A DNA stretch of 64,000 bases, from positions 1 to 64,000 of the IMG/VR virus record IMGVR_UViG_3300045988_142085, one strand, 5' to 3'. Below the pieces are notes generated by a model that saw only the letters and a program-made list of their open reading frames with translations, was not told the origin of the DNA and did not search any database. Shown in pieces: positions 10,957-62,922 of this stretch (its first letter is position 1; every line of letters starts with the position of its first letter). The position numbers and the translations under genes are program-made. This stretch comes from a virus.

Positions 10957-11202
10957 TTCCTAGTACTTTAACTCTATTTAAATAGACGGTCTGGACTATA
11001 CCACACAAATAAATTGCCAGCTATGGTAGTCTCTGAGGGTTCATCTAAACGATGCTTCCCTGCGGATTACCCAATCTTTAATCTTTTTACTCTACCAAGG
11101 TAATTATTCTTGCCACTATTTTCTTTCGTTAATAGCTTAGTAATTAAAGCTCTAAGGGACTTCCCGCATATAAGCTGTTTATAGAACGCATGGTTTTGTT
11201 TA
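10957..11202 (-). ncRNA. group I intron (phage IA-like, ORF-less), nrdD intron 2; coordinates approximate
   Basis: Lies between the zinc-ribbon end of NrdD (CPKCGNQDHNTLKVIRRT) and the GYLG exon. Minus strand carries P-like AAUCCGCAGGGAAGC, R CUCAGAGACUACCAUAGC and S GGUAUAGUCCAGACC. Confidence 0.6.
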
Positions 11203-12078
11203 CGTTCTTCGAATAACTTTTAATGTATTATGATCTTGATTTCCACACTTAGGACAAATCCAATCACCATGACCATCAGGCAAAATTTCGCCGTCAAAAC
11301 CACATTTCATACAATGATCGAGCTTAGTATTAAATTCCCAATACATAGCATTATCATAAATATATTGAATAATAGTTTCTAATGCTTCAATGTTATTCGT
11401 CATATTAGGAATTTCACCATATCCAATAAATCCGCCAGTAGCGTTTTCTTGGAAAGGTGCTTCAAAATCTATTTTATCAAAGATATTAATATTTTCTCTC
11501 ACATCAATGTGGTGTGAGTTGGTATAATAACCTTTATCGGTTACATCTTTAATTTCACCGAATTGTTCTTTATCTAATTTAGCAAATCTATAACATAAAC
11601 TTTCTGCCGGAGTACTATATAAAGAATAGCCATAATTCTCTTGAGCATTCCACTCAAGACATTTGTCGGCCATATACTTAGTAATCTTTAATGCTAAATC
11701 TTGATGCTTAGTATTAGATTCACCTGTTAATAATTTAATAGTTTCATATAAGCCAATATATCCTAGGCTTAATGTTGAATAACCGCCAACCATTAAATCA
11801 TCAAGAGTATCTTCTGCATTTTTTCTTGCATAACAACCATACATCCATAGCAATGGAGATATTTTAGCTTTTACTCCAAGTAATCTTTCAGTTTTAAATT
11901 TAAGTGCTTTGTGGCACAACTCTAAACGTTCATCTAGAATTTTCCAGAATTTATCAATATCACCATCTGCTACAATTGCACATTGAGGAAGATTCAATGT
12001 TACAACACCTTTATTAAAGCGTCCATCTATAATAGGTTTATTTTCTTTATCATACCAAACTGATAAGAAACTTCTACA
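11203..12078 (-). CDS. nrdD: NrdD, exon 2
   Basis: Begins CRSFLSVWYDKENKPIIDGRFNKGVVTLNLPQCAI (compare E. coli NrdD MGCRSFL...GR.N.GVV.LNLP). Ends at the C4 zinc ribbon CMKCGF...CPKCGN. Confidence 0.8.
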
Positions 12079-12310
12079 CAACTTAATTAATTAAGCTGGA
12101 CTATCTCTTCATTTATTTTAAATAAATGCGATGCGCATCGAGTAGCACGTCTCTACTCTACTTGGCTACATTCATCACCAATAGTCTCTACACTTTCGTA
12201 ATAATACGATTAGCACGGTATTACCATTAAGGGTTCACCGTTAGCCCCGAATAAGGGACACCTGTTTTGTGATACAGTTCACATCGTTTTATATGGGCCG
12301 TTATGTGTTA
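12079..12310 (-). ncRNA. group I intron (ORF-less, 232 nt), nrdD intron 1
   Basis: Exon 1 ends ...VFGPMG (GGU) and exon 2 starts CRSFL..., which rebuilds the conserved PMGCRSFL. The 5' exon ends in U and the intron ends in G. Minus strand carries R GUAGAGACUAUUGG and S GAGAUAGUCCAGC. Confidence 0.75.
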
Positions 12311-13462
12311 ACCCATCGGGCCAAATACTTGACCATCTTTTACTTTTCGCATAATTTTAGCCGATACATAATCAGGCATCATTCGTTTAGCTGTACATTC
12401 TGCAGCAAGTTTAGTTAAATAATAATATTTACTGCCTGGCTTAGCATTATGTTCATCTAATGCATACACTAACTTAGGGAATGTTGGGCTAATCGTAACA
12501 CCGTCCGGGCCTTTCATGCCTTCAATTCTTTGACGAAGAATCTCTTCTGTAATCATAGCACATTCTTCTTCATACTCTGAACCTGGCATAAAATGCATAA
12601 ATAATGTTATAAAAGGTGACTGCCCATTAACCGTCATGAGTGTGTTTATCTGATACTGTAATGTTTGAATGCCATCTTTTAATTCTTTTTTCAACATTGT
12701 TGCAACGAGTGCATCTTTATTTTGCTCATTATTAAAAATCTCTTCATATTTTTCTTTAGATCTTCTTAAATAAGGAGCTAAAATTTCTTCAATGTTATTC
12801 GCTGTTTGCCCTCCCAGCTGGTTCGATGCAACTCCAGCGAAGAGCTGACTTAATACTGTACACGCAACTTGAAAAGATTTTGGTGATTCAATTTTCTTTT
12901 TGTTTACAACAGTTCCATTTGAAAGCATATCTTTAAAATTTGGCAATCCACAATTATGCATTTTTTGCAACTGGTAGTCCATATCATGCATATGAAGAAT
13001 ACCTTTATCATGAGCATTTACAATATCGATCGGAATTATTTTTCTTCTAGATATATCCTTAGATACTTCACCCGCAATCAAATCACGTTGAGTAGAAATA
13101 ATATATGCATCTTTATTTGAATTCTCATTAAGTGCTTCTTTATTAGTTGCATCAATTAATGTAAGTATGTCATCATCTGATGTATTATTTACTCGTTGAT
13201 ACTCACGTACTGCTCGATATGCTTCATAAGCACGAGCCACATCTTTTTGTTTATGTTTAACGAGGAGATCGAATACCATCTTTTCGATACGTTTAATATC
13301 CAGTTCCTGAAGCATAAGAGCTTCTTGTGTTATTTCTTCGGCAATAGCATTAGCTATTTTTTCATTATCTTTAAGTAAAGAATGTTGTGCCTTACCTATA
13401 GCTACAACGATCTTAGATTTGTCGAAATCGACCTTGCGGCCGTCTCTCTTAATTACGATCAT
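12311..13462 (-). CDS. nrdD: NrdD, exon 1 (ATP-cone and N-terminal barrel)
   Basis: Starts MIVIKRDGRKVDFDKSKIVVAI (ATP-cone); long ORF ending ...DGQVFGPMG. Confidence 0.85.
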
Positions 13463-16862: not shown

Positions 16863-17795
16863 CTTACTACTATAATTTTCATTACCATTAAAATAAATGT
16901 TTGTAGTCTGGACTATATCTTCACCATTTCAGGTGTCCACGTGTAGTCTCTACGGAGTCTCTTTTTACAAGAGTTCCCTCGGTATTAGCATATGTTACCA
17001 CTTAGCCTTCACCGATACAGTGGATTACTTACATAGAGTTTCTAATTCCTCTTTACGTAGCTCAATATCCCTTTTTCTAAAAGGTAAACCATAATATTTA
17101 CACCATTTTCTTACTGCATTATCTGAAACATTATATTTTCTACCTATTTCAAGAAAAGAAGTAGTTAATATTAGTCCAGCCAAAGTTTTTTTGTCTGGAC
17201 GAGAAACTTTTCTTAATTTTAAATTTGGCGTATATTTGCGTTTATTAATAATTCCTTTTTTCTTGTTACATTTTTTACAATATACAGATTTGGAATTGTG
17301 ATTCATTTTTTTGCCACAACATTTACACCTTGGTTTAATAGTTTTTCCATAAAATTTAGCAGATTTTATTTGATTTTCAGAATGAGTAAGTAATTCCAAA
17401 TTTTCTAAAGAATTATTATCTTTATTATGATCTATATGATTAATTTCCATACTAGACGGGATAACACCAACAAAAGTCCTATACACCAAACGATGTACGT
17501 ATAAATGTTTTCCTGATATTTTTACTGCATTATATCCAACATTATTTTTATAAATCTTCATTTTTCTAAAAATCATATTGTTTTTAATGCAAAAAATATT
17601 TTCATCTAACTCTTTTTCTGGCTTGCCATATTTATGAGAACGATGATACATTGTATTATTAATAATAATATAATAATCTGGATTGCATTTTTTTAATACG
17701 CTATCTCCAGATTTATTAATATAATACAATGGAGAAAATTCTATTTGTTTGTAATCATTCATGAAACCTCACATATAAATATATGAGTAAGATTT
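16863..17795 (-). mobile_element. group I intron carrying an HNH homing endonuclease ORF
   Basis: Core lies downstream of the ORF: R CGUAGAGACUACACG and S AAGAUAUAGUCCAGAC, then a P9-like hairpin, ending ...GUAG UAAG directly before the tRNA 3' half. The ORF starts 35 nt after the 5' splice site and has its own SD (GAGG). Confidence 0.65.
17025..17762 (-). CDS. intron-encoded HNH homing endonuclease with a C-terminal HTH
   Basis: HLYVHRLVYRTFVGVIPSSMEINHIDHNKDNNSLENLELLTHSEN (HNH_3/NUMOD-type); zinc ribbon CKCCGKK...CKKC; C-terminal helix-turn-helix. Confidence 0.8.
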   Translation of the reverse strand: MNDYKQIEFSPLYYINKSGDSVLKKCNPDYYIIINNTMYHRSHKYGKPEKELDENIFCIKNNMIFRKMKIYKNNVGYNAVKISGKHLYVHRLVYRTFVGVIPSSMEINHIDHNKDNNSLENLELLTHSENQIKSAKFYGKTIKPRCKCCGKKMNHNSKSVYCKKCNKKKGIINKRKYTPNLKLRKVSRPDKKTLAGLILTTSFLEIGRKYNVSDNAVRKWCKYYGLPFRKRDIELRKEELETLCK

Positions 17796-27700: not shown

Positions 27701-27798
27701 ACTTTAGCGGCTAAGTCTTTATATTTTTTATCGAAATTAAAAAAGGCTCTACCAGATTTCTTGGAGAGCTTTTTAATTTGATTAATATCTATTTTCAT
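24772..27798 (-). CDS. SNF2-family (SF2) DNA helicase/translocase with a 290-aa N-terminal domain
   Basis: Walker A ISQPGTGKTSMAI; DEMHE (DExH); SNF2 motif III-IV LGLTGTLFNGYAENLYNMFLYF; motif VI MRQAARRSYRLNQ. Confidence 0.75.
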   Translation of the reverse strand: MKIDINQIKKLSKKSGRAFFNFDKKYKDLAAKVFTDFDTFVLLDLYSTGSKSYNKKIKDTLEYFEKAYNYEFRKEIRDCTITSNNNLSNLPYNMHRFYAETKNKFYVLFLLGDNKDSVILEYKKDFLKSDYIRENKEILVANYIEYLNKEANGSFFNENLVDLFFNTNKALDNSYVIENKELEFTIFKMPAYGYYTDSVEDIVRDADDGENADYIHEDMTINDFIYNNINDLSATVNKSTNITFDPNKGFDPEVQAFSDYLGYKRDFNLFTNQKNIINAMHRHLKKEKAGFLISQPGTGKTSMAISIASLWKSGLNKNVFVVCPTHLIKKWSKDINILAPNAKIYECNSTKEYIEHIEPEINKRLSTNYILVNPNCIKQSVIKTRNTSIDCLKHVKNVLDKEKKDSIILVDGRNEWGYIRYLRIHSKSEHKKGDREETIRYRDYLDAPKVKACASLIDTKKIDNKNIMSYDIDQIVKAIDISEQKAANFASLDWYIQRKGRHNVDMLIVDEMHEFLTNSAQGHGVQRLASCAKKILGLTGTLFNGYAENLYNMFLYFYPEKIKNEYEEYMKRNPDFRGGMKKQFKDRYSYKEVEYTPYENQLYKLENAVDFTYINHNWGRYLNVQFLEKDKLGNTTANVECTTKTKDAPGINPNIFIKLLSNCCVFMSMDDVSSELPAYNESIIKCELNKENIEAYNNLISNLSNATVPARYKHQEIKKLAAWSDNPCFIADDYIEYRGTGVRDNHKLDELMKIINHHDQECVLVYTYYDTNNDINSIIYDRLQQEGIKTAILKSSTSAMKRIEWFEKKKAEGVRVVICNPGMVDTGLDLLDFTTIVFYELDQNFFTMRQAARRSYRLNQKNNVSIYYMYYAGTVQETLIKFMAEKLKSVKVLEGDFDDEGLSSLVSGNQDNTNAIYRDMLDKVEYENDDDVISINKYADKVEKIVDMDSFKLERIVLAKKPLKKQKINLDNQYHLLLDVRTRFSHNQKLYRYENSYKKELQNFVSSF

Positions 27799-28283
27799 TA
27801 GTATAAATTACCTTTTTCAATCTTATTAATATAGTTGATATAAGGTCGACCAGACTCAGTCGATTTAAATTTATTGTCGCCAATATATTCGAAATTAGTA
27901 AATTTCTTAGAACCACCAACAATATAATTGCCGGCGATTTTATTTTTTAGTTTATCGCTTAACATATATAAAGCAATATATTTCTTATCGACTGGCAATA
28001 GAGAATTAAATGGCTTCTCTTTAATTTCGCCTGTCGAAAACTGAATATCGACAGCTTCATCGAGATAATCATTATAATTAGTATTATTAGCGTATACGAA
28101 TTCAGGAATGTCGGTAAGAGAGAATACTTTGATGCCTTCTCGTTCACCGATTAATTCGCCATTACTAATATCGACTTTACTGTCGATAAAAATAATATAC
28201 TTTTCTTCGCCATGATTAAGATCTTTTGGTTGCGGATTACTGAACCTCATATAATTAAAATCATATGATTCTAAAAATAACAT
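27798..28283 (-). CDS. hypothetical protein
   Basis: 161-aa ORF; its ATG lies 29 nt after the tnpB stop. Confidence 0.45.
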   Translation of the reverse strand: MLFLESYDFNYMRFSNPQPKDLNHGEEKYIIFIDSKVDISNGELIGEREGIKVFSLTDIPEFVYANNTNYNDYLDEAVDIQFSTGEIKEKPFNSLLPVDKKYIALYMLSDKLKNKIAGNYIVGGSKKFTNFEYIGDNKFKSTESGRPYINYINKIEKGNLY

Positions 28284-28312
28284 AAAGTTATTTTATTAAG
28301 AAGTTTGATTTT

Positions 28313-29575
28313 CTAAGAAACCCTTATTCTTTTAGGCGTGTCCAGTTCGCCTCTACTGCATAAGATTGTTAAATCTACAGCGCTACTTTTGCGAAGAATA
28401 TTTAATGCTCCATTACAATCTGCATTAAAAAGATAACCATCTTTAGTTTTATATAAACCTCTTTTAACGCGTTTACCACTAAAATCATAAGTTTGTGGAT
28501 TATCCATATTATAAACAGGCAATTCATCATTATCAAAAAAACTAGCTTTAGACGTATAAGATTCTTCTTGTAAGATATAATTAATATTATATCGTTTACA
28601 TAAATATTCTAATTTTTCTCTTATTTTACCGAATGGCAACTGAGTAAAAATTTGATTAGTTTTTTTACCTAAGTTAGTTTTATTTTGAAATGATTGATTG
28701 TAACCAATTACTAAAGTACCAATATCATTAATTAAACAATAGTTAATAATATAACGACATGCTTTATTGATATAATCATCAACTCTATTTTTTCTCTTAC
28801 GAGAAATTAAATATTGTTGTTTTGTATGTCGTCTAATATTTTGTTTATCTTTGATAGATTGTAATTTTGCATTTTGCTTATTAAAGAATTGATTAATAGA
28901 CTTTAATTTTCTTCCATCAATGATAAAAGATTTACCTGTACTAGTAACACAAGTACATAGATTATTTACGCCTAAATCAATAGCCAGTGCATTGTTAGTA
29001 TTTAATTGTATATCTTCTTCTTGAATTTCGTAAGTATACTGAATCTCGAAGAACCTAGCATTAAATTTAGGAATAATTTGAATTTCTTTTATCTTCTTAT
29101 CTTCTAATACTTTAGGAATTTTAATTTGAATTTTAGTTTCATATTTTTTCTTAAAAGTATTAGAATATGGAATTGTTAAAACATTGTCTTTTCTAAGCCT
29201 AATTTGACCAATTATTAAATTTGAATAACTATTTTTAGGTAAATATTTTGGCATTCTAATATGTTTAAAGCTATATTTACCTTGCTTAGCTAATTTAATT
29301 AGAGTAAAAAATGATTTGAACATTGCGTCAACGTCTTTAAGGGTTTGTTGGGCCATATTGGAATTTAACAATTTATAATTATCAGAATTCTTTAATTCGT
29401 GATAATTAGATTCATATCTTAAATATTGCTTTTCTTGCAAATAATGTTGTCGAACATTATATATTGCTTGATTAGTTAAATTCTTAGCTATTCTACACAA
29501 CTCTCTTAAAACATTATATTCTTCTTTAGTTAAGTGTTTTACTTGTTGCTTTATCGTTAGATACATTATGATCAC
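28313..29575 (-). CDS. tnpB: TnpB (OrfB) RNA-guided endonuclease of the IS200/IS605 family
   Basis: RuvC-I AIDLGVNN, RuvC-II QEESYTSK, RuvC-III NADCNGALNILRK; N-terminal OrfB_IS605 helical region; 420 aa with no frameshift. Confidence 0.85.
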   Translation of the reverse strand: MIIMYLTIKQQVKHLTKEEYNVLRELCRIAKNLTNQAIYNVRQHYLQEKQYLRYESNYHELKNSDNYKLLNSNMAQQTLKDVDAMFKSFFTLIKLAKQGKYSFKHIRMPKYLPKNSYSNLIIGQIRLRKDNVLTIPYSNTFKKKYETKIQIKIPKVLEDKKIKEIQIIPKFNARFFEIQYTYEIQEEDIQLNTNNALAIDLGVNNLCTCVTSTGKSFIIDGRKLKSINQFFNKQNAKLQSIKDKQNIRRHTKQQYLISRKRKNRVDDYINKACRYIINYCLINDIGTLVIGYNQSFQNKTNLGKKTNQIFTQLPFGKIREKLEYLCKRYNINYILQEESYTSKASFFDNDELPVYNMDNPQTYDFSGKRVKRGLYKTKDGYLFNADCNGALNILRKSSAVDLTILCSRGELDTPKRIRVS

Positions 29576-29689
29576 CTCGCTTTCTAATATTATATTACAA
29601 GCTAATCATAACATATATTTACTGAAAAAGCAACTTTTTAGTAAAATTTTTACAGGACATTTTAGAACCATATTTCTAAAATCAATTAG

Positions 29690-30105
29690 AGGTCTCGTTC
29701 AGCCAAAGACGCTACTCTTTGACCGGCACCATTACATGCACCTTTAGCTTTCACTAAAGCACAGACTATATCTTATCCATATTATATTTTCATATAACTT
29801 AGGCGACACCACTTCCCCGGGCTTCCGGGTACGACCCTCACGAGGTCTAGTCGTTGAACCTTTCCTTAACAAAATATTAAGGCTTGGCTGCTGATCGTCC
29901 ATTATTACAAGACTTAGGGTTTAACCTTATCTCATCTCAGAAATTTATTTCTACTTTCGTAACTCGTGCAGCTAAGCCGCACAAGTATTCTGAGCTTTAG
30001 AAGTTTCCAGCAATTCAGTGTCTTTGTCGGACGGGTAAGAACCGTCACTACCTACTAGTTTCCCAATAGGCTTACTATTTTGTTAAAATATATCTTATGA
30101 TTAAA
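29690..30105 (-). ncRNA. group I intron catalytic core (the 5' module of the IStron)
   Basis: Minus strand carries P GAAUUGCUGGAAAC, Q GAUCAGCAGCC, R GGUUCAACGACUAGACC (close to the canonical GUUCACAGACUAAAUG), S AAGAUAUAGUCUGUGC (canonical AAGAUAUAGUC), and a P2 hairpin GACGG-UUCUUAC-CCGUC. Confidence 0.6.
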
Positions 30106-30115
30106 ATCACAAGTG

Positions 30116-30814
30116 TTATTTTGACATCTTAATAACTATATCATTAGTCCATATACTTCTATCGTAATAACCATCACAGTAAAAATCAATAAAAGATGAT
30201 GGCTTAACATTATCTTTTATCTTTTTAAGGTTTTTAAATAATACGATATCATAATCTGTATTGACCCAAAATTCTACAGATCGTGGTATTTTGTTTTTTA
30301 CAAAACTATATGGATTAAATTTAATATTTTCATAATCACAAAAATCTAAAATGATATTAGATAGATCGCTAATGAATCCTTCTTTAATATCACCACAAAT
30401 ATTCATGATTTCAGAATATATCTCCCAGATTACGGAACGATAAAAAATAAAACGATGTAATGAATTTTCACCTAAGAAATTAGAATATAATCTAATTTGA
30501 TTACCAAATTCTTTTTTAATAGATTCATTGTTAAATTGAACGAGATATCCCATTAACACTTCTTCAAATCGTTCATGATTATTTCTATCTTCATGTGTAA
30601 AATCTACTTCTTCTAAATATTGATATAGCATTATATTTTCATATTCAGTTTCGAATACATCGAGACGTTTGCAAATTCTATCGATAATGAAAAATCGTGT
30701 AAGAATTTGTGAATAGAAGCTAATTCCTCTTTTGCAGAAGTAATATTCTTTAATTTTTAAATCTGGAAAATATTTTGAGAACAGTGAATTAAACTGTTTT
30801 ATTGACTCTTTCAT
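30116..30814 (-). CDS. hypothetical protein; overlaps the 3' end of the polymerase ORF by 26 nt in another frame
   Basis: 232-aa ORF whose stop lies about 20 nt before the intron module. Confidence 0.45.
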   Translation of the reverse strand: MKESIKQFNSLFSKYFPDLKIKEYYFCKRGISFYSQILTRFFIIDRICKRLDVFETEYENIMLYQYLEEVDFTHEDRNNHERFEEVLMGYLVQFNNESIKKEFGNQIRLYSNFLGENSLHRFIFYRSVIWEIYSEIMNICGDIKEGFISDLSNIILDFCDYENIKFNPYSFVKNKIPRSVEFWVNTDYDIVLFKNLKKIKDNVKPSSFIDFYCDGYYDRSIWTNDIVIKMSK

Positions 30815-32261
30815 AGTATTTTAAATACTCCCCGTTCTTATCAAAATATTCTAAACGTTTGTTAATGCCGCAAAAATCATAATAACAATTAACACAGTCT
30901 ACATTATTTAAACATAACATATCTTCATAGACACCCATCGCTAATAATTTTACAGCTGTTTTTTCTGGTAGAGATTTTAATTTAATTAAAATATCTTTCT
31001 TAGTAATCGATTTTATTTTTTGATATGTTTCTTTATCGACTAAAATATCGAAACCGAATACAAGTTCATCGTCGACAAAAACACTATTATAATTACTAGT
31101 ATTTTTAATTTCTTTCCAGCGACGATCAGGCTCCGCCTTGTTTTCTTTTTGTTCTTCGACTTTAAAGAATTCATCTTTAAAGTAATATCGCAAATAAGCA
31201 CCGATATAAATCATATAAGCATAAGCTATACCATGACTTTTATTATAGCTATAACTAGTCGTATCAAGATATATATCGACAAGTTCTTTAATGTTATTGT
31301 CTTTAGCGATCTTCTCGACATCTTTAAGATACTTATGGTCTTTATCTTTCATTAAACGATATGCACTTTCTCCAGTTACATATTGTTCCATGATCTGAAT
31401 AAATTGTTCTTGGTATACGACTATTCCGTATGTTTTTGCAGTATAGTCATATAAACTAGTCTTCAAAAACTTTTTTTGGCCGTTTTTTCTTTTTATATAT
31501 GTATCTTTATGTTTAGATCGAATAATCGCTAGACTATCGCTAAGCTCTTCGATACTACAAGGCTTAACTTGCTTAATACAAGCAGAGCTATAATCAGTGT
31601 CGATTTGAAATAACCCCTTAGCAGATTGCCATATCGACTTCCACACATCGACATCATTAAAATTAACAACGACGTTATGTTCATCGATAATATTCTGATA
31701 TTTTCCGACAATAGAAGAACTCAATATGTCATATTTAGGAATGCTCTCAGATTGCAAAATTGCCATCTCTCCGCTCACTTCTTCAGGCTCGTATATATTA
31801 TACCTATCGATACAATAACTCACCGGATTAAGGCGTTTTTTACCGTTTTTATCGATAGTATATACTCGCCAGATATGACCTTTATATTTACGATATAAAT
31901 AACTAATTAATTCTTCTCTTCGACTAGCATCGACATCTAGATCGATATCAGGCTTATGGCCACCAATAAATCGAGTAAAGCTTAATCCATATTTAATCGG
32001 ATCCACTTTCGTGATCTCTAATAGCCAAACAACGAGACTCCCGACGCTACTGCCTCTACCATAGCCAGTAGCGATCTTTTTATCTCGACAAAATTTACAA
32101 TAGTCGAATACTATTAACAAGTATTCTTCCATGTTTAATTTAAATAATGTATTTAATTCGTCCTGCAAACGATCGACATATTCACCAGATAACTCTAGTT
32201 TATTTAAACGATCCCAGCAGTAATCCGAAATGAATTTTTGAATATCGTTCATACAGGCCAC
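30789..32261 (-). CDS. dnaE: DnaE-type (Pol III alpha, C-family) DNA polymerase catalytic core: palm, thumb and fingers only, with no N-terminal PHP domain and no C-terminal OB/tau-binding region
   Basis: YLLIVFDYCKFCRDKKIATGYGRGSSVGSLVVWLLEITKVDPIKYGL (compare E. coli [22 protein letters not shown]); catalytic HKPDIDLDVD (compare PDFDVDF); VVYQEQFIQIMEQ (YQEQVMQIA); SYNKSHGIAYAYMIYIGAYLRYYF ([24 protein letters not shown]). Real start is probably MNDIQKF. Confidence 0.75.
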   Translation of the reverse strand: MACMNDIQKFISDYCWDRLNKLELSGEYVDRLQDELNTLFKLNMEEYLLIVFDYCKFCRDKKIATGYGRGSSVGSLVVWLLEITKVDPIKYGLSFTRFIGGHKPDIDLDVDASRREELISYLYRKYKGHIWRVYTIDKNGKKRLNPVSYCIDRYNIYEPEEVSGEMAILQSESIPKYDILSSSIVGKYQNIIDEHNVVVNFNDVDVWKSIWQSAKGLFQIDTDYSSACIKQVKPCSIEELSDSLAIIRSKHKDTYIKRKNGQKKFLKTSLYDYTAKTYGIVVYQEQFIQIMEQYVTGESAYRLMKDKDHKYLKDVEKIAKDNNIKELVDIYLDTTSYSYNKSHGIAYAYMIYIGAYLRYYFKDEFFKVEEQKENKAEPDRRWKEIKNTSNYNSVFVDDELVFGFDILVDKETYQKIKSITKKDILIKLKSLPEKTAVKLLAMGVYEDMLCLNNVDCVNCYYDFCGINKRLEYFDKNGEYLKYYERVNKTV

Positions 32262-32271
32262 CTTTCTTTCC

Positions 32272-32302
32272 TAACAAAAAAGAGCTCCAAAAAGGAGCTC
32301 TT
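32272..32302 (-). terminator. intrinsic terminator separating the primase operon from the polymerase gene
   Basis: Minus strand AGAGCTCC-TTTTT-GGAGCTCT followed by TTTTTGTTAGG. Confidence 0.6.
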
Positions 32303-32598
32303 CATCACATATAAATGTGCGTAAATACTTATATCTAATGATTAGGATAACTTAGAACTTACATTATATACATGATATTGAATTTGACCGAGAATCTCGA
32401 ACATCTCTCTTGACGTATTAATGTTACTTGTCGTAACAAAAATATCGTTATTATCGGTAACTTCGATTGTAAATTTTTTATTTGTATTTTCTTTTTTAGA
32501 TCGTTTTTTCATAATAGACACCTGCTAACACTAACAGCTAACATTAGCCGTTAATGTTAGCATTTAATTCTATATGTATATTTTAACATATTTTTTGT

Positions 32599-32805
32599 TT
32601 ACCAGCAATCCGGACAAACAATTTTTTTAGTGTCTAAATCGTATACAGCGCAATCGTCGCAAATTACTTTGCCACACTTACTGCACACCATTTTATATTC
32701 TTCTTCGCATGGCTGACCACATTGTTCACATCGGAAATACCCTTCAGGAACTGGAGGTTGATCCGACGTTAATTTGTGCCACCATGCTTTAATTTTTTTA
32801 ATCAT
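32599..32805 (-). CDS. small C4 zinc-ribbon protein
   Basis: CEQCGQPC...CSKCGKVICDDC...CPDCW; 68 aa; its start overlaps the primase stop. Confidence 0.45.
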   Translation of the reverse strand: MIKKIKAWWHKLTSDQPPVPEGYFRCEQCGQPCEEEYKMVCSKCGKVICDDCAVYDLDTKKIVCPDCW

Positions 32806-34539: not shown

Positions 34540-34772
34540 CTAATTATCCTTTCTTATAATACGAGAATGATATCCTTCTTTTTTATTCACAATCTTTAAT
34601 GCGATTTCATCGTAGCTGTCAGTCGCTATTAACTGATATACGAATACTGTATCGTGATTGCTGCTTGCGCGTTCAATTCGTCCATGACGCTGAGTCTGGA
34701 TCAAATAACTATCGGCTGGTTCCATCTCGATGAGGTACTTAGCCGATTGGCAATTCATCATTCTTGTGTTAA
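34540..34772 (-). CDS. SNF2-family helicase, exon 2 (motif VI)
   Basis: ...NTRMMNCQSAKYLIEMEPADSYLIQTQRHGRIERASSNHDTVFVYQLIATDSYDE (QxxGRxxR motif VI). In frame with exon 1 once the 263-nt intron is removed. Confidence 0.65.
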
Positions 34773-35035
34773 CTTACTATTTCTAGTAAGATCGGACTCT
34801 ATCTTTAATTTTTTATTTAAAAATTATTTCCTGTTCAATGTATACATTGTTTACTTATATCTTATTAAGATACTTTCAATAGTCTCTGAACCTTTATCTT
34901 TGTCACCAAAGATACTTGGCTGCGGATTGTCCAATCTTAATCTTTTTTACTGTATCAAGATAATTACTCTTGCCCCATATTATATCACTATATATGGTTA
35001 GTAGATTAAGCTCTAAGGAGATCCCCGTCAATTTA
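34773..35035 (-). ncRNA. group I intron (ORF-less, about 263 nt) in the helicase gene
   Basis: Minus strand carries R GGUUCAGAGACUAUUG (34892..34877), S AAAGAUAGAGUCCGAUC (34802..34786) and a P9 hairpin CUUACUAGAAAUAGUAAG ending in G. The 5' exon ends ...GCCCUCU (U). Splicing joins ...EQTHAL to FNTRMMNCQSAKYLIEMEP. Confidence 0.6.
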
Positions 35036-36321
35036 GGAAATTTAAAGAGGGCATGAGTTTGTTCACCCTCTGCGCCAGCGTTAGAAGCAATTAGGACATT
35101 ACATTCTTGTGTATTATTAAATTTTTGTAATTGATTATATCGTTCTTCACTTGAGTGAGAGCCATTAATAAAGGCGATTTGAATTCCTTTAAAACGATTT
35201 TCTAAATACGTTTTAAGAATTCCTTGTGCTGTTCTATACTTACAGAACACAACAACTTTTTCACCTTCACTTAAAATACTCTCGACTAAGTCTAAGAACA
35301 ATTCAATCTTTTCAGATTTTTCGCCAGTCACATATTCTTGTGCCGCTTTACTATCGCTTAGTAATAATAACTCATCACTAATAGTAAGCTCTTGAGCAAA
35401 TGTTTGTTTCATTAAGATCATATTATCGATCTTATTAAATTCTTCATTCTTTCTAGCTTCTTCGATCGAATTAAACCGTTCAAGCATAACTTCTTGTTGT
35501 GCTTTAAGATCTTTGATTTCTTCGAGGAGCTTATCACTCATAGCTTGTACTTTTCTACCTAAAGAGCAAAATTTTTGAGCGACGACAAGTTTAGGTAAAT
35601 GACTGCTTACTTCTTCTTTCGTTCGGATAATTAAATTATGTTTAATTTTATCGGTTAATTCTCGTTCATTACGAGAACCGATAATATATCCGAGACTATT
35701 CTTTTTGACATATTGTTTATCGAATTTATTTATATTAGTAAACAAATCTTTTTTGATAAATCTATATATGCCAAATATATCTCGAGGATTTTTTTGAATC
35801 GGAGTTGCTGTTGCTCCGAAAGTATACTTTATATTATTAAATTTATATAGGCTTTTACTTCGTTTGGCTTGATAGCTTTTTACATATTGTACTTCGTCGG
35901 CAAAAATATATTCTAATTTCATTGCCAACAAACGTTCTCGAACTTTTTCGTCGTTAAGCGTTTCATAGTTACAAATAAGTAAATCGCCAACAAACTGATT
36001 ATCGAAGTTTTTCTTAGCCTTTGCTGAAGTTTCTAAAATGCTCGGAATCAGATCACTAAACTTCTGAACTTCATGGAACCATTGAACTTTTAAACTACTT
36101 TTAACTACGATTAATCCTGGACCTTTTATTTTCTTACGGTCTAAAAGTTCTAGATAAAGATCGATCGCTATTAAAGTTTTGCCAGCCCCGCAGCTTGCGA
36201 CGATTAAGCTACCTTCATCAATATCGAGAAGTTCTTTTACGGCTGTCTTTTGATAATTATAGAGTTCATATTTACATTTACCGATACCTTCGATGCTAAA
36301 ATTCGGACAATATAATAGCAA
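35036..36321 (-). CDS. SNF2-family helicase, exon 1 (motifs I to V)
   Basis: Walker A SCGAGKTLIAID; DEVQ box FADEVQY; SNF2 signature FGATATPIQKNPRDIFGIYRFI; motif V IASNAGAEG. The track ORF 34903..36321 continues about 40 codons into the intron. Confidence 0.75.
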
Positions 36322-54549: not shown

Positions 54550-56061
54550 CAAATGTTATTAACCTGTATATTTTTACATACAGCTCTGGAGGTTTTCCTC
54601 ATTTTCATCGATTAGTTAATTCTAATCCAGTTTAGCGTAACTTTTCACCTTAATTAAGATTCATAGGGTTGGGGCCTCTTGGTAGGATTATATCTTTTCA
54701 CCTACTACGCGTTGCGGCTGGCTTAACTTTGTTAAGCCTTCACCTCTGATTAGCATATTGTATATTAATACAACTTAGCCTTCCAGATTTTTTCCCCAAA
54801 GCTAGTCATCATCTTCTGAATCTGTTGATGACGACACGGCTATGCTATTTACAAATTGTCCTTTTTGATTTCTCATCCAAGGATGTTCTTTTTGATGGCA
54901 TTCTGTACATAATGAAAGACCATTTTTAAGATCATTAAATTCTATACTTTTAACAATGTCATCTAAATTATTATTATATTTTTGTACTATGCTATAAAGT
55001 TGTTCGATATGATGAACTATTATATCGGATCGTGATCCACATTTTTGACATGTATAATTGTCTCTTTTTAAACAAGAATTTTTCCAAATTTCATATTCTG
55101 TAGTGCTTCTTAAATAATGAGCAACTTCTGTATATGTTTCTTTTTCTTTATGTAAATATAATTTTTTATGCTCGTTACAACAAAAATGTTTTTTATGATT
55201 TTTAAATTTAGATTCTATTATTTCATATTTTTTATTACAATAATCACAAGAAACTTCAACACGTTTTTTTCGTGCCTCATGTGAACATTTACTAGAACAA
55301 TAGATATGTTTATTTTTTCCTTCAAAAAAATTTTTTAATGCGCCAATTGGCTTATTTATTTTTTCTCCGCAGAAATCACATTTTAATTCTTCTATTGTTT
55401 TTTTATTTTTTTCTTTTATATCTATTGCGTTATGATGCATACATTCTATTGAACAATATGATATATTTTGATTTCTTTTAGTTTGTTTTTTTACATAACT
55501 ATTTGGTAATTTAAATTTTTTTTGACAAAATTTACATGTAAACTCTGTAAAATTACCACGTATATCATTTTCTTTGTTGTAAATTTTGCAACATTCAGAA
55601 GAGCAGAAATAATGCTTTTTATTTTTTAATTTTTGCTGAACCTTAAATTCTTTTCCGCAACAATCACATTTTACATTTAATTGATTGCGCCCCCAATGTT
55701 TATCTTTACACTCTCGGGAACAAAATTTTATAGGTTGATTTTTTTTATTAGCATTTTTAATTTCTCGTTCACTTCTTTGAAACATATTACCACATTCAAG
55801 ACAAATATAATCATGATATACAATATTTTTATGCGCGTATTCATGCATACATTTCTTTGAACAAAATTGTGGTTCAAAATTTGGATTTTTTCTTTTTTGA
55901 AAATCAACTTCACATTTTCTTCTTTTAAAATCAGACATGCAGTTCTTGCATGCATAGTACAACCATATATTTTCTTTATTTTTCATAATTATCTCCTGTT
56001 AATATTCAGTATACATCTATATATTACAGGAGTTTCTTCAATTTGTAAATTTTAAAATTTA
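54550..56061 (-). mobile_element. self-splicing intron (same family as the uvrD intron) carrying an HNH endonuclease ORF, inserted just after the AAA Walker B region
   Basis: Exon 1 ends ...ILIDEAEKVLGG (GGU) and exon 2 starts YASSHQ. Its 5' end (UAAAUUUUAAAAUUUACAAAUUG) and its 3' 250 nt are homologous to the uvrD intron, with compensatory hairpin changes (GGAUUAG/CUAAUC versus GGACUAG/CUAGUC). Confidence 0.6.
54802..55986 (-). CDS. intron-encoded HNH endonuclease with six N-terminal Cys-rich (FCSxxC-type) zinc-finger repeats
   Basis: C-terminus CQKCGSRSDIIVHHIEQL...LCTECHQKEHP (HNHc). Repeats FCSKKCMHEY, FCSRECKDKHW, FCSSECCKIY, YCSIECMHHN, YCSSKCSHEA, FCCNEHKKLY. Confidence 0.75.
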   Translation of the reverse strand: MKNKENIWLYYACKNCMSDFKRRKCEVDFQKRKNPNFEPQFCSKKCMHEYAHKNIVYHDYICLECGNMFQRSEREIKNANKKNQPIKFCSRECKDKHWGRNQLNVKCDCCGKEFKVQQKLKNKKHYFCSSECCKIYNKENDIRGNFTEFTCKFCQKKFKLPNSYVKKQTKRNQNISYCSIECMHHNAIDIKEKNKKTIEELKCDFCGEKINKPIGALKNFFEGKNKHIYCSSKCSHEARKKRVEVSCDYCNKKYEIIESKFKNHKKHFCCNEHKKLYLHKEKETYTEVAHYLRSTTEYEIWKNSCLKRDNYTCQKCGSRSDIIVHHIEQLYSIVQKYNNNLDDIVKSIEFNDLKNGLSLCTECHQKEHPWMRNQKGQFVNSIAVSSSTDSEDDD

Positions 56062-61159: not shown

Positions 61160-61757
61160 TTAACTTTCTTCTAGTTCTTCGAGCTTAGCTTCAGAATCAC
61201 GAATTTCTTCGACTTCTTTTTCGCTAAGATCTTCAAATGTACCAGAAACCATATTAAGCAACTTTTTAAACTTATCTGGATTAGCAAGCATATCTTCACG
61301 GAACGCCATTTTACCGTTCCATTTATCTAACACTTCTCCAGTGTTAGGATCAATTTGTTGCATCCATGCACCAGCTTTATGAATGATGCCCATATCGACT
61401 AATTCATCGAGCGTACTTAAAATTTGTTCAATGCCTTGACCAAATATAGCAAAGTAGCTAAATTTACGATACGGGAATTCACCTGGAATAGCGTGATTTT
61501 TAGTAATCTTACAGTTAATTTTAATACCGTCTTCTTTACCGATAGGATCACTATCTAAGATACTACCTTTACGCATTTCGACAATCATTATACTGCCGGT
61601 TCTAATTGCTAGACCACCAGCTAATACAAGATTGTCGCCATACATACTAAAACCACCGATATTCGTAGTCAAATGCTGGATGAGAATCATAGCCGTGTGA
61701 TATTTACTAATTAAAGAAACAAATTTTGCTATAATTCTACTATTCATACGCGCTTGG
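61160..61757 (-). CDS. recA: RecA recombinase, exon 3
   Basis: (L)QARMNSRIIAKFVSLISKYHTAMILIQHLTTNIGGFSMYGDNLVLAGGLAIRTGSIMIVEMRKG (compare E. coli [63 protein letters not shown]). Confidence 0.75.
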
Positions 61758-62121
61758 CTTTTTGCCGTGGACTATATCATTATCCTATTATATATAGGAT
61801 ACCTAGTTTTTGGATTTAATGGGATTTCACCAACCCTAGATTAGGGCCCTACTCCTTTTGCCATATTTATATCTTAGCGTCTGGCCAATGGGATAGTCTC
61901 TGAACTTTATTCCTTTAAGAATATTAGCTGCTGATTATCTATTGTTATGTCACTTAGCACTGTCTCTAGCTTTTATTTCAGCATATGACAAACTAATTAT
62001 TTTTTCTGTCTTTCGACAACATTCACATTTATTATTTCTAATTATGTTGTAGTTAATTAGTTATTAAGAACTTCCAGCAATTTACTAGGTTTTCACATTG
62101 TATTACTACAATATGCCTTCC
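61758..62121 (-). ncRNA. group I intron (ORF-less, about 364 nt), recA intron 2
   Basis: Minus strand carries P AAAUUGCUGGAAG, Q AAUCAGCAGC, R GUUCAGAGACUAUCCC, S AAUGAUAUAGUCCACGG. The 5' exon ends ...CACGUGCU (U) and the intron ends in G. Splicing gives SKHVLQARMNS. Confidence 0.65.
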
Positions 62122-62438
62122 AGCACGTGTTTGGAGGCGACGCTTACGTCTTTAAGACTCTTATTAGCTTCGGATTCAGGAACCAAAGCTTTTAGAGTAT
62201 TAATACAGAACAAGTCTATAGCACCAGTTTGAATTAATGCTTCAGCTTGATCGATACAGTCTTCTGCAGTATGATCTCGATCATATTGAATGAAATAAAA
62301 TCGTTCTGGATCGATACCAAATTGATTGACCATATAATCTAAGCTTAAAGATGCTTCACTTTCAATCCATAAGGCAAAATGTCCTTCTGGATTTTCACGA
62401 TGCATTTTACCGATTGTTTCAAGCACTAAACTAGTTTT
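62122..62438 (-). CDS. recA: RecA, exon 2
   Basis: KTSLVLETIGKMHRENPEGHFALWIESEASLSLDYMVNQFGID...AIDLFCINTLKALVPESE (compare E. coli ...LDPIYARKLGVD...VDVIVVDSVAALTPKAE). Confidence 0.75.
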
Positions 62439-62652
62439 CCTTTATACCCTCGGTTTCCCGATATTTATTAGGGGAGTAGACTATATCATCATCTTAATTA
62501 AGATGTTCTGCGCTTCCGTTACGAATGTAACGTACTCCTTTCGGATAGTCGTTGGGGCGCAATTAAGCTGCCTGCTGATTACCTCGATGGGCTTCCCAGC
62601 ATATCACAGAATTTGCATATAATTATCACTAATTATAGGGGCAAAATTAATT
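62439..62652 (-). ncRNA. group I intron (ORF-less, about 214 nt), recA intron 1, inserted in the Walker A codons
   Basis: Exon 1 ends ...IAGVADSG (GGU) and exon 2 starts KTSLVL, which restores GxxxSGKTS. Minus strand carries P AUAUGCUGGGAAGCC, Q AAUCAGCAGG, R CCCAACGACUAUCCG, S GAUGAUAUAGUCUACUCC. The intron ends ...AAAGG. Confidence 0.65.
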
Positions 62653-62922
62653 ACCCGAGTCTGCAACGCCAGCGATAGTCGTAATTTTCCCAATCGGAAA
62701 ACCACCGCCAGTTGCTGCATTAAAGTTAACAGATGGTGTCGGAATAAATCGAATATTAAGCTGTTCCTGAACTTTAGGATCACTTAATCGACCGACAACC
62801 ATGTTGTTCTTTTTCTTAGCCAAGTTAGCCATTACAAGATCTAATCGCTTACGTCTTTCGACGTCAGTTAAGACTTGAGAATTGCTAGCTTCGACAATTG
62901 GTTCAGCTTTCTTTCTTGCCAC
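62653..62922 (-). CDS. recA: RecA, exon 1
   Basis: MARKKAEPIV...RKRLDLVMANLAKKKNNMVVGRLSD...NFNAATGGGFPIGKITTIAGVADSG (compare E. coli ...[31 protein letters not shown]). Confidence 0.75.

Follow-up and report, generated by a model that had tools for sequence, protein, structure and literature searches.

IStrons join a group I ribozyme to an insertion sequence (IS) that carries tnpB, the gene of an RNA-guided nuclease. Those of group A, e.g., CdISt1 of Clostridioides difficile, insert after TTGAT, ATTAT, or TTTAT, end in TCAG, and carry the IS part behind a GAACGA-type motif; many described IStron copies have no tnpA, and IStrons were documented in phages in 2014, namely in the Clostridium botulinum phages c-st and D-1873 (PMC4227781). 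Here, we describe a locus in a 64,000-nucleotide stretch of viral DNA (IMG/VR record IMGVR_UViG_3300045988_142085, positions 1 to 64,000; hereafter, the window). An element of 1892 bp at positions 28240–30131, on the minus strand like all its parts discussed below, is very probably a non-autonomous IStron of group A (IS200/IS605-type), inserted in the sense orientation inside a conserved gene of 374 amino acids (aa) in a phage of ~236 kb. An earlier note on this DNA had called an IStron, i.e., a ribozyme 5' of an intact IS200/IS605-type tnpB, and this call stands: nearly all group A features were found, including every one at the sequence level (a 5' IA2 intron, GAACGA, an enclosing stem, a T-rich target, and TCAG). 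The novelty that the note saw in a phage-borne IStron was overstated, given the reports of 2014 (PMC4227781).

Comparison with known systems

The likeness to group A IStrons, i.e., CdISt1 of C. difficile (PMC4227781) and the CdiIStrons (10.1101/2023.11.20.567912), extends to the 5' IA2 ribozyme with P7.1/P7.2 and an extended P9, the GAACGA motif before the IS part, the T-rich target, the U•G pair at the junction, the TCAG end, the inverted-repeat stem around the open reading frame (ORF), the commonly missing tnpA, and the overlap of the omega-RNA (predicted here) with the 3' splice region. A CdISt1-type copy in Clostridioides phage ES-S-0173-01 has end hairpins and a terminal GAGGTTCAG nearly identical to those of the window element. 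The CdISt1 type differs in its target and guide (TTGAT and UAGUCA, versus TTAT and UAGUAA in the window). The window element also departs from it in its TnpB, which belongs to a distant clade, with Gly at RuvC-II and no zinc finger, and in its host, an uncultured phage of ~236 kb, some relatives of which carry two copies per contig.

The copy in phage ES-S-0173-01 (locus L052; CP067352.1, 2486–4385) is an unannotated IStron that lies in-frame in a phage gene. It has the left border TTGAT/TAAAAA..., the guide UAGUCA, a canonical 369-aa TnpB with a zinc finger, and the end ...GGGAGGTTCAG/.

The group B (IS607-type) IStrons CbISt3 and CbISt4 of phages c-st and D-1873 are also phage-borne, and the CbISt4 ribozyme is homologous to that of the window over nearly its full length, as found by nhmmer and blastn. 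Unlike the window element, they insert after GG, end in CGG, and are associated with a serine recombinase, and c-st is a plasmid-like prophage. Two bacterial relatives carry a TnpB of the same clade as that of the window. One is an IStron (L060; GCA_001998525.1, MDSP01000666.1) with a 52% identical TnpB, an ATTAT target, a GUAA guide, and the end ...GGGAGGTTCAG; the other is a ribozyme-less IS (L057) with a 56% identical TnpB and the same end hairpins, which ends in ...GGTTCAA and hence has no terminal G. Both differ from the window element in lying in bacterial DNA, chromosomal or metagenomic.

Classical phage group I introns, such as those of T4 td, nrdB, and nrdD and of Twort orf142, carry homing endonuclease genes. 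The Twort intron has an IA2 fold like the window ribozyme; the cargo of the classical introns is an HNH, GIY-YIG, or LAGLIDADG endonuclease, whereas that of the window element is an RNA-guided TnpB with transposon ends. No homing endonuclease ORF (LAGLIDADG, GIY-YIG, HNH, or His-Cys box) was found in the element, where tnpB is the sole ORF. We found no literature that pairs the term "IStron" with "jumbo" phages. What the locus adds is modestly new, namely, how common such elements are among the ~230-kb uncultured phages of one clade, the TTAT/UAGUAA specificity, a rearranged TnpB without a zinc finger, and a filled/empty polymorphism suitable for tests of homing.

Borders of the element and the interrupted host gene

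By TnpB similarity, 43 related loci were recovered from IMG/VR; most lie on contigs of 200–236 kb, several of which carry two copies. Nucleotide similarity between the window and these loci starts at 30135/30136 and stops at 28239/28240. In the element-free contigs L045–L049, and in L027 at the position of the window insertion, both flanks align with few bases between them; at the junction, GAT ATA GTT AT / T AAT CCG of the window corresponds to GAT ATC GTA ATC AAT CCT of the empty L027 site. Since the empty sites, the conserved ends, and the limits of homology coincide, the element was delimited from the T of TAAGATG (30131) to the G of GGTTCAG (28240). The borders in the earlier note, 30115 and 28286, were therefore off by 16 and 46 nucleotides (nt), respectively, and the sequences it quoted as flanks, CACTTGTGAT and AATCAAAC, are internal, the first being an arm of the left-end hairpin and the second lying in the stem around the tnpB stop codon.

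The insertion splits a single gene. Exon 1 (30132–30814) ends in ...GAT ATA GTT AT and exon 2 (27798–28239) begins with T AAT CCG; when 30132 is joined to 28239, the result is a 374-aa ORF, collinear and gap-free with uninterrupted homologues of 373 or 374 aa. The annotated 232-aa ORF consists of exon 1 and five codons of the intron, with a stop at 30116, and the annotated 161-aa ORF starts at an ATG inside the element (28283). Because the spliced ORF is collinear with the uninterrupted homologues, these two ORFs, which public gene-calling pipelines also report separately and between which the element had been described as wedged, are the exons of one gene. Such an in-frame intragenic insertion is the strongest argument for splicing.

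The host gene is located between a DnaE-like gene and a SNF2-type helicase gene, in a replication module, and its spliced 374-aa product has no match in Pfam or PHROG. The content of the window (tape-measure- and tail-like proteins, phage helicases, a PNK-RNA ligase, and HNH endonucleases) and the related contigs from IMG/VR clearly identify its origin as phage. A megablast search of the locus against GenBank phages returned no match. Elements of this kind are abundant in the phage clade, with at least 120 protein clusters at 88–100% identity, mostly on contigs of 200–240 kb.

Two observations on related contigs concern the host gene and the phage. In a pair of loci from one sample that belong to another phage (L040, 2430, and L042, 660, with a contig break inside the element), the site used in the window is empty in the same 374-aa host gene, and an IStron lies 141 nt further downstream in that gene, after ...GAATTTATTTAT. 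The only close match in a species-representative genome collection is a 208-kb contig assigned to "uncultured Gemella sp. UMGS1894" (L050; USNF01000001.1); it is probably a phage genome binned with a bacterium, and gives a weak hint of the host.

Target motif and ends of the element

In every related copy, NTTAT / TAAGAYGYYAAAATAAYA forms the left border and ...GAGGTTCAG / the right one, beyond which the sequences are unrelated. The window target is GTTAT. Among 22 distinct full copies, TTAT is the preceding tetranucleotide in 20, and the most frequent pentamers before the element are TTTAT (10), ATTAT (5), and GTTAT (4). The target is TTAT and not the TTGAT-like motif that had been expected. 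In most of the distinct full copies (16/22), a sense-strand ORF extends for 30 codons or more to either side of the predicted splice junction; the others mostly lie close to the end of a gene, and a single copy shows an ORF in antisense only.

The 3' terminus TCAG (GGTTCAG at 28246–28240) is common to all ribozyme-bearing copies. The G of the terminal CAG (28240–28242) is the predicted omega-G, with the 3' splice site between 28240 and 28239. All 28 distinct ribozyme-bearing copies end in G, and ribozyme-less relatives end otherwise (CAT in L014/15, CAA in L024 and L057), a pattern that fits the constraint imposed by an intron omega-G.

The ends have the IS200/IS605-type layout, i.e., subterminal hairpins at 30113–30094 and 28267–28248 that are similar in sequence and both covary, with no terminal inverted repeats and no target duplication. 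The left-end hairpin (CTTGTGAT-TTTA-ATCATAAG, 30094–30113), with compensatory changes in 6/8 pairs, is nested in the P1 loop of the ribozyme beside helix P1a. It resembles not only the right-end hairpin but also the hairpins of L052 and L057.

Structure of the group I ribozyme

The core strings listed in the earlier note were all found on the minus strand, namely, P (GAATTGCTGGAAAC, 30016–30003), Q (CAGCAGCC, 29893–29886), R (GGTTCAACGACTAGACC, 29860–29844), and S (AAGATATAGTCTGTGC, 29774–29759), and they form helices P4 and P7 of a complete group I fold. The covariance-model check that the note had proposed confirmed a group I core: on a slice of 491 nt (29660–30150), the Rfam model RF00028, with a gathering score of 50, scored 75.5 bits (E 1.8e-19) for a match at 29742–30095. 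The same model did not report this ribozyme in a scan of the whole window, where it found two other introns, or in a scan of 2.4 kb (28000–30400, E up to 10). We attribute these misses to speed-filter artefacts; in practice, Rfam scans of long windows can miss ribozymes with large peripheral insertions.

An IA2-type structure was written by hand on an alignment of 28 distinct copies (A1). It comprises P1, P1a, the left-end hairpin, P2, P2.1, P3, P4, P5–P5e, P6/6a, P7, P7.1, P7.2, P8, P9, P9.1, and P9.2. Standard pairs occupy 93.9% of cells, versus 33–43% when partners are slid by 1–3 columns; changes on both sides, i.e., compensatory, occur in 69/123 ribozyme pairs among these diverged copies, and none of 500 shuffles reached any of the observed pairing measures. 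P4 and P7 are invariant across the alignment and identical to the consensus in the window copy. The latter keeps 122/123 pairs intact, a count that is biased, as the structure was drawn on this copy.

The ribozyme body from P2 to P9.2, including the extended P5a–e (29695–30070), is identified by covariation, Rfam, and nhmmer. It is closed by the GAACGA motif at 29700–29695, after which the IS part follows. The nhmmer profile of the ribozyme matched, near full length, CbISt4 of c-st (E 1.2e-41), the Clostridioides phage element (E 1.3e-61), and L060 (E 1.6e-61).

The 5' strand of P1 (30130–30135) is made of TTAT, which is both the exon end and the target-adjacent motif (TAM), and of TA at the intron start, placing the 5' splice site between 30132 and 30131. 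The exon UUAU and the intron UA pair with the internal guide sequence 5'-UAGUAA (30077–30072); pairing holds in 98% of cells, and 27/28 copies have the U•G at the splice site. The guide changes in step with the target, being UAGUCA with TTGAT in L052 and GUAA with ATTAT in L060. Helix P1a (30125–30119 with 30088–30082) is located in the P1 loop. Two other candidates for P1, formed from the hairpin CTTGTGAT/ATCATAAG or from AUAAC, were rejected, as they provide no U•G and the covarying, target-matched guide is UAGUAA.

The peripheral hairpins P5b, P6a, P7.2, and P8 (A1 columns ~180–225, 305–327, 360–385, and 400–428) occur as a few discrete variants that are combined differently among copies. 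This mosaic suggests recombination or gene conversion between IStron copies.

Intron-closing stems and predicted omega-RNA

Two long-range pairings connect the end of the ribozyme with the end of the element. The hexamer GACCUC (29689–29694) pairs with GAGGUU (28248–28243), which lies directly upstream of the CAG terminus; pairing in this stem reaches 99%, and two pairs show double changes, e.g., AACUUC/GAAGUU. A 13-bp inverted repeat, 97% paired in the 28 copies, encloses the tnpB region with its 5' arm (UAUGGUUCUAAAA) at 29660–29672 and its 3' arm at 28264–28276.

The last ~140 nt contain five conserved stem-loops (SL) with compensatory changes, one of them around the tnpB stop codon, and the minimum free energy fold recovers the stems. 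These are SL1 (28376–28363), SL2 (28351–28335), an outer stem with SL3 (28331–28298), SL4 (28293–28275), with double changes in 5/7 pairs, and SL5 (28267–28248), which is the right-end hairpin. We take this region (28240–28376), which overlaps the 3' end of tnpB and has GAGGUUCAG after the stem-loops, for a putative omega-RNA scaffold. From the layout of IS605 and IStron elements, the guide portion is predicted to be the first ~20 nt of exon 2 (UAAUCCGCAACCAAAAGAUC, 28220–28239). The omega-RNA layout reported for such elements shows the same arrangement as this 3' part (10.1101/2023.11.20.567912), and an Rfam search of the region yielded chance-level matches only and no family. The conserved stem-loops support the proposal in the earlier note that the intron's 3' end overlaps an omega-RNA-like structured region.

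SL4 and SL5 share 2 nt and 4 nt, respectively, with the 3' arm of the inverted repeat, so that the closing stem and the predicted omega-RNA with its right-end hairpin cannot fully form at the same time. These shared nucleotides would explain in structural terms why splicing has been reported to compete with guide-RNA formation.

TnpB

The 420-aa TnpB ORF reported in the earlier note is present and complete (28313–29575), but a start at ATG 29566, favored by the ribosome-binding site GAGGTG (29577–29572) and by public gene calls, is more likely. With this start, tnpB (28313–29566, stop codon TAG at 28315–28313) encodes 417 aa, and an identical 417-aa protein (P0001) exists in public data. Pfam assigns it to OrfB_IS605 (6.8e-31) and Cas12f1-like_TNB (2.2e-08). 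The gene is under purifying selection: among 405 pairs from 29 distinct copies with an intact ORF, the ratio of nonsynonymous to synonymous substitution rates (dN/dS) has a median of 0.155, and dS one of 0.55.

An alternative already raised in the earlier note, i.e., two unrelated neighbors, an ORF-less group I intron beside a decaying tnpB, could draw on the plentiful free-standing group I introns of the window. We give it hardly any credence, since at more than 20 sites the ribozyme and tnpB lie within the same two borders, the 3' splice site, downstream of tnpB, pairs with the stretch that directly follows the ribozyme, and tnpB is intact, with the low dN/dS given above.

An exhaustive search for related TnpBs returned 5397 representative clusters at E ≤ 0.001. 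Residues D197, G288, E335, and D383 are invariant in 46 diverse members (33–55% identity). A single-sequence search of the PDB gave nothing useful, and a family profile was needed to match solved structures, namely, Cas12f and ISDra2 TnpB chains at E 1e-12 to 1e-17. On a solved Cas12f chain, AIDLG aligns with RuvC-I GIDLG, the invariant Gly with the Glu of QMEDL, and NADxNGA with RuvC-III NADYNAA. Of the three RuvC motifs previously claimed, two were thus recovered with their aspartates (D197 and D383), whereas the canonical position of the RuvC-II Glu is occupied by the invariant Gly288, and an invariant Glu335 (EESYTS) lies 47 residues downstream. No cysteine lies between residues 335 and 383, so that the region from RuvC-II to RuvC-III has no C4 zinc finger, a motif that some TnpB branches are known to have lost.

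TnpBs termed "RuvC-II rearranged," with Gly in place of Glu and another Glu predicted as its replacement, have been described on the basis of structure predictions, not assays (PMC10691335). As judged by its sequence, the window TnpB corresponds to this type, and by analogy its nuclease is plausibly active.

The closest TnpBs in GenBank phages are only ~38% identical. Similarity to the TnpB of the Clostridioides phage is limited to 25% over 191 aa, and no significant similarity to the CbISt4 TnpB was detected. In bacteria, the clade occurs both with the ribozyme (L060) and without it (L057). As almost unrelated TnpBs are combined with a common ribozyme and common end hairpins, one chassis carries different TnpB cassettes.

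Mobility, age, and mode of spread

The absence of tnpA from the element, pointed out in the earlier note, extends to all ~40 related copies. Everywhere, only ~130 nt separate the ribozyme from tnpB, which leaves no room for tnpA and makes the element non-autonomous. By a crude heuristic scan, no ORF of at least 90 aa within the window has a HUH motif. When a Y1 TnpA probe was sought among annotated phage IS elements, H24 proved to be an IS607 with a resolvase, and H23 was without tnpA.

Copies at different sites, even within one genome, are ~84% identical (overall median, 83.9%), and where different phages share a site, the similarity of the copies is close to that of the flanks. The low identity between sites indicates that the insertions are old and mostly inherited in place. 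Some copies are reduced: L019 (~2840–2890) keeps P2/P2.1 and has lost P3–P9.2; L027 (2863–4339) has lost nearly the whole ribozyme, so that 18 nt of the left end are followed by the inverted-repeat arm; and the right ends of L014/15 and L024 have lost the terminal G.

Two mechanisms of spread other than transposition by TnpA were considered. In the first, the element would reverse-splice into RNA at UUAU and then be reverse-transcribed and recombined. This would agree with the guide, whose 4-nt exon specificity equals the insertion motif, and with the failure of the HUH-motif scan to find a TnpA among the window ORFs. We consider it very unlikely, because the end hairpins and TCAG/TCAA ends are the same in the ribozyme-less L057, which cannot reverse-splice, and because the TTAT-type motif also agrees with known IS200/IS605 targets (PMC4227781).

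The second mechanism is homing alone, in which TnpB and the omega-RNA would cut intron-less alleles of co-infecting phages and the element would be copied in by recombination, with no transposition; TnpB would take the role played by protein homing endonucleases in classical phage introns. The lack of tnpA in ~40 copies, in every one of which tnpB is nevertheless under purifying selection, speaks for it, as do the divergence of same-site copies in step with their flanks and the old age of copies at different sites. In addition, presence and absence vary at the same site, and the empty alleles lack TTAT and have seed mismatches. The idea of TnpB-driven intron homing has been raised, untested, in the literature (PMC13565253). 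On the other hand, the occupation of more than 20 distinct sites, all after TTAT, together with the IS200/IS605-type end hairpins, points to past transposition by TnpA, and nuclease activity of this rearranged TnpB is a prediction. Homing alone is possible, but less probable than not.

Proposed mode of action

As a non-autonomous group A IStron, the element would be transcribed together with its host gene. The IA2-type ribozyme, i.e., the first ~440 nt, would recognize the 5' splice site through pairing of exon UUAU and intron UA with 5'-UAGUAA, with U•G at the junction. The GACCUC/GAGGUU stem and the 13-bp inverted repeat would hold the 1.4-kb tnpB region in a loop and set the terminal UCAG beside the core. 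The 1892 nt would then be spliced out whole, with exact restoration of the frame (...D I V I / N P Q P...) and a predicted ligated exon junction of ...GATATAGTTAT/TAATCCGCAACC... (...GTTAT/TAATCC...). TnpB would be made from its own strong ribosome-binding site, and the omega-RNA, made up of the last ~140 nt and ~20 nt of exon 2, would guide TnpB to TTAT-flanked intron-less alleles. Through the shared nucleotides, one transcript would either splice or yield guide RNA. Movement to new TTAT sites would need a Y1 TnpA in trans, and present persistence would depend on splicing, which makes the insertion harmless, and on TnpB-dependent retention or homing, probably not on active transposition.

Several points weigh against this scheme. 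We infer splicing and the omega-RNA, as well as nuclease activity and the mode of spread, rather than observe them. The exon pairing in P1 is short (4 bp with the exon and 2 bp with the intron). In the window copy, four positions with at least 96% conservation elsewhere carry private substitutions, namely, 30028, 30001, 29919, and 29896 (the last in J5/4), and P1a contains one C·A mismatch; these private ribozyme changes could reduce activity. The TnpB lacks both the canonical RuvC-II Glu and the zinc finger, and its activity is predicted by way of the rearranged clades. Finally, with no tnpA and old copies, current mobility is doubtful.

The four substitutions are also compatible with a dead insertion, in which the window copy would not splice and the 232-aa and 161-aa proteins, each with an annotated start and stop codon, would be made separately and might be functional. 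This is unlikely: all ribozyme pairs but one are intact, P4 and P7 equal the consensus, the frame is kept exactly across the junction, and the 161-aa ORF begins within the element's right end purely as a result of the insertion phase. An IStron that still splices remains the preferred reading.

Other selfish elements in the window

Further introns were found in the window, again on the minus strand. A group I intron at 34773–35094 (RF00028, 66.2 bits) splits a SNF2/DEAD-like helicase gene into ORFs 34903–36321 and 34540–34761. A recA-like gene (61160–62922) is in three pieces (62647–62922, 62106–62426, and 61160–61747) with two group I introns between them, at 62457–62662 (64.8 bits) and at 61765–62143 (44.7 bits, below the Rfam threshold; E 2.7e-10), the second of which is also matched by the IStron-ribozyme profile. 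The anaerobic ribonucleotide reductase gene nrdD (11200–13462) is split into 12308–13462 and 11200–12081 by a gap of 226 nt with a weak group I match (12080–12221; 28.6 bits, E 1.6e-5), which is probably another intron. The nrdD gene of T4 is also split by an intron. Two free-standing HNH endonuclease ORFs (Pfam HNH_3; PHROG HNH endonuclease) are located at 17025–17762 and 54802–55986, minus strand. With at least five introns in 64 kb in addition to these HNH ORFs, the genome is rich in selfish elements.

The DnaE-like ORF next to the host gene (30789–32261, minus strand) spans only the NTPase and finger parts of the DNA polymerase III alpha profile (PHROG 405, positions ~351–466 of 1190). No part corresponding to the PHP domain adjoins it, and the 540 nt upstream (32262–32801) contain no long ORF.

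Implications for IStrons and their phages

The locus and its relatives extend the range of IS605-type IStrons beyond clostridial and fusobacterial chromosomes and C. botulinum prophages, as these elements are abundant in large uncultured phages. Conserved phage genes that carry them appear as two ORFs in automatic annotation. The nucleotides shared between the closing stem and the predicted omega-RNA hairpins offer a handle on the choice between splicing and guide formation in an IS605-type element with a rearranged catalytic site.

Sites that are filled or empty among related phages, with no transposase, constitute a natural system for intron homing by TnpB alone. We tentatively suggest, as a possibility less probable than not, that the TnpA-less IStrons of ~230-kb phages are kept as RNA-guided homing introns, the TnpB of each copy, with the adjacent exon as the guide of its omega-RNA, cutting intron-less, TTAT-bearing alleles of co-infecting relatives, driving its own copying, and excluding the markers of competitors. 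This would account for the selection on tnpB at old, fixed sites and, if true, would make these elements a programmable counterpart of phage homing endonucleases.

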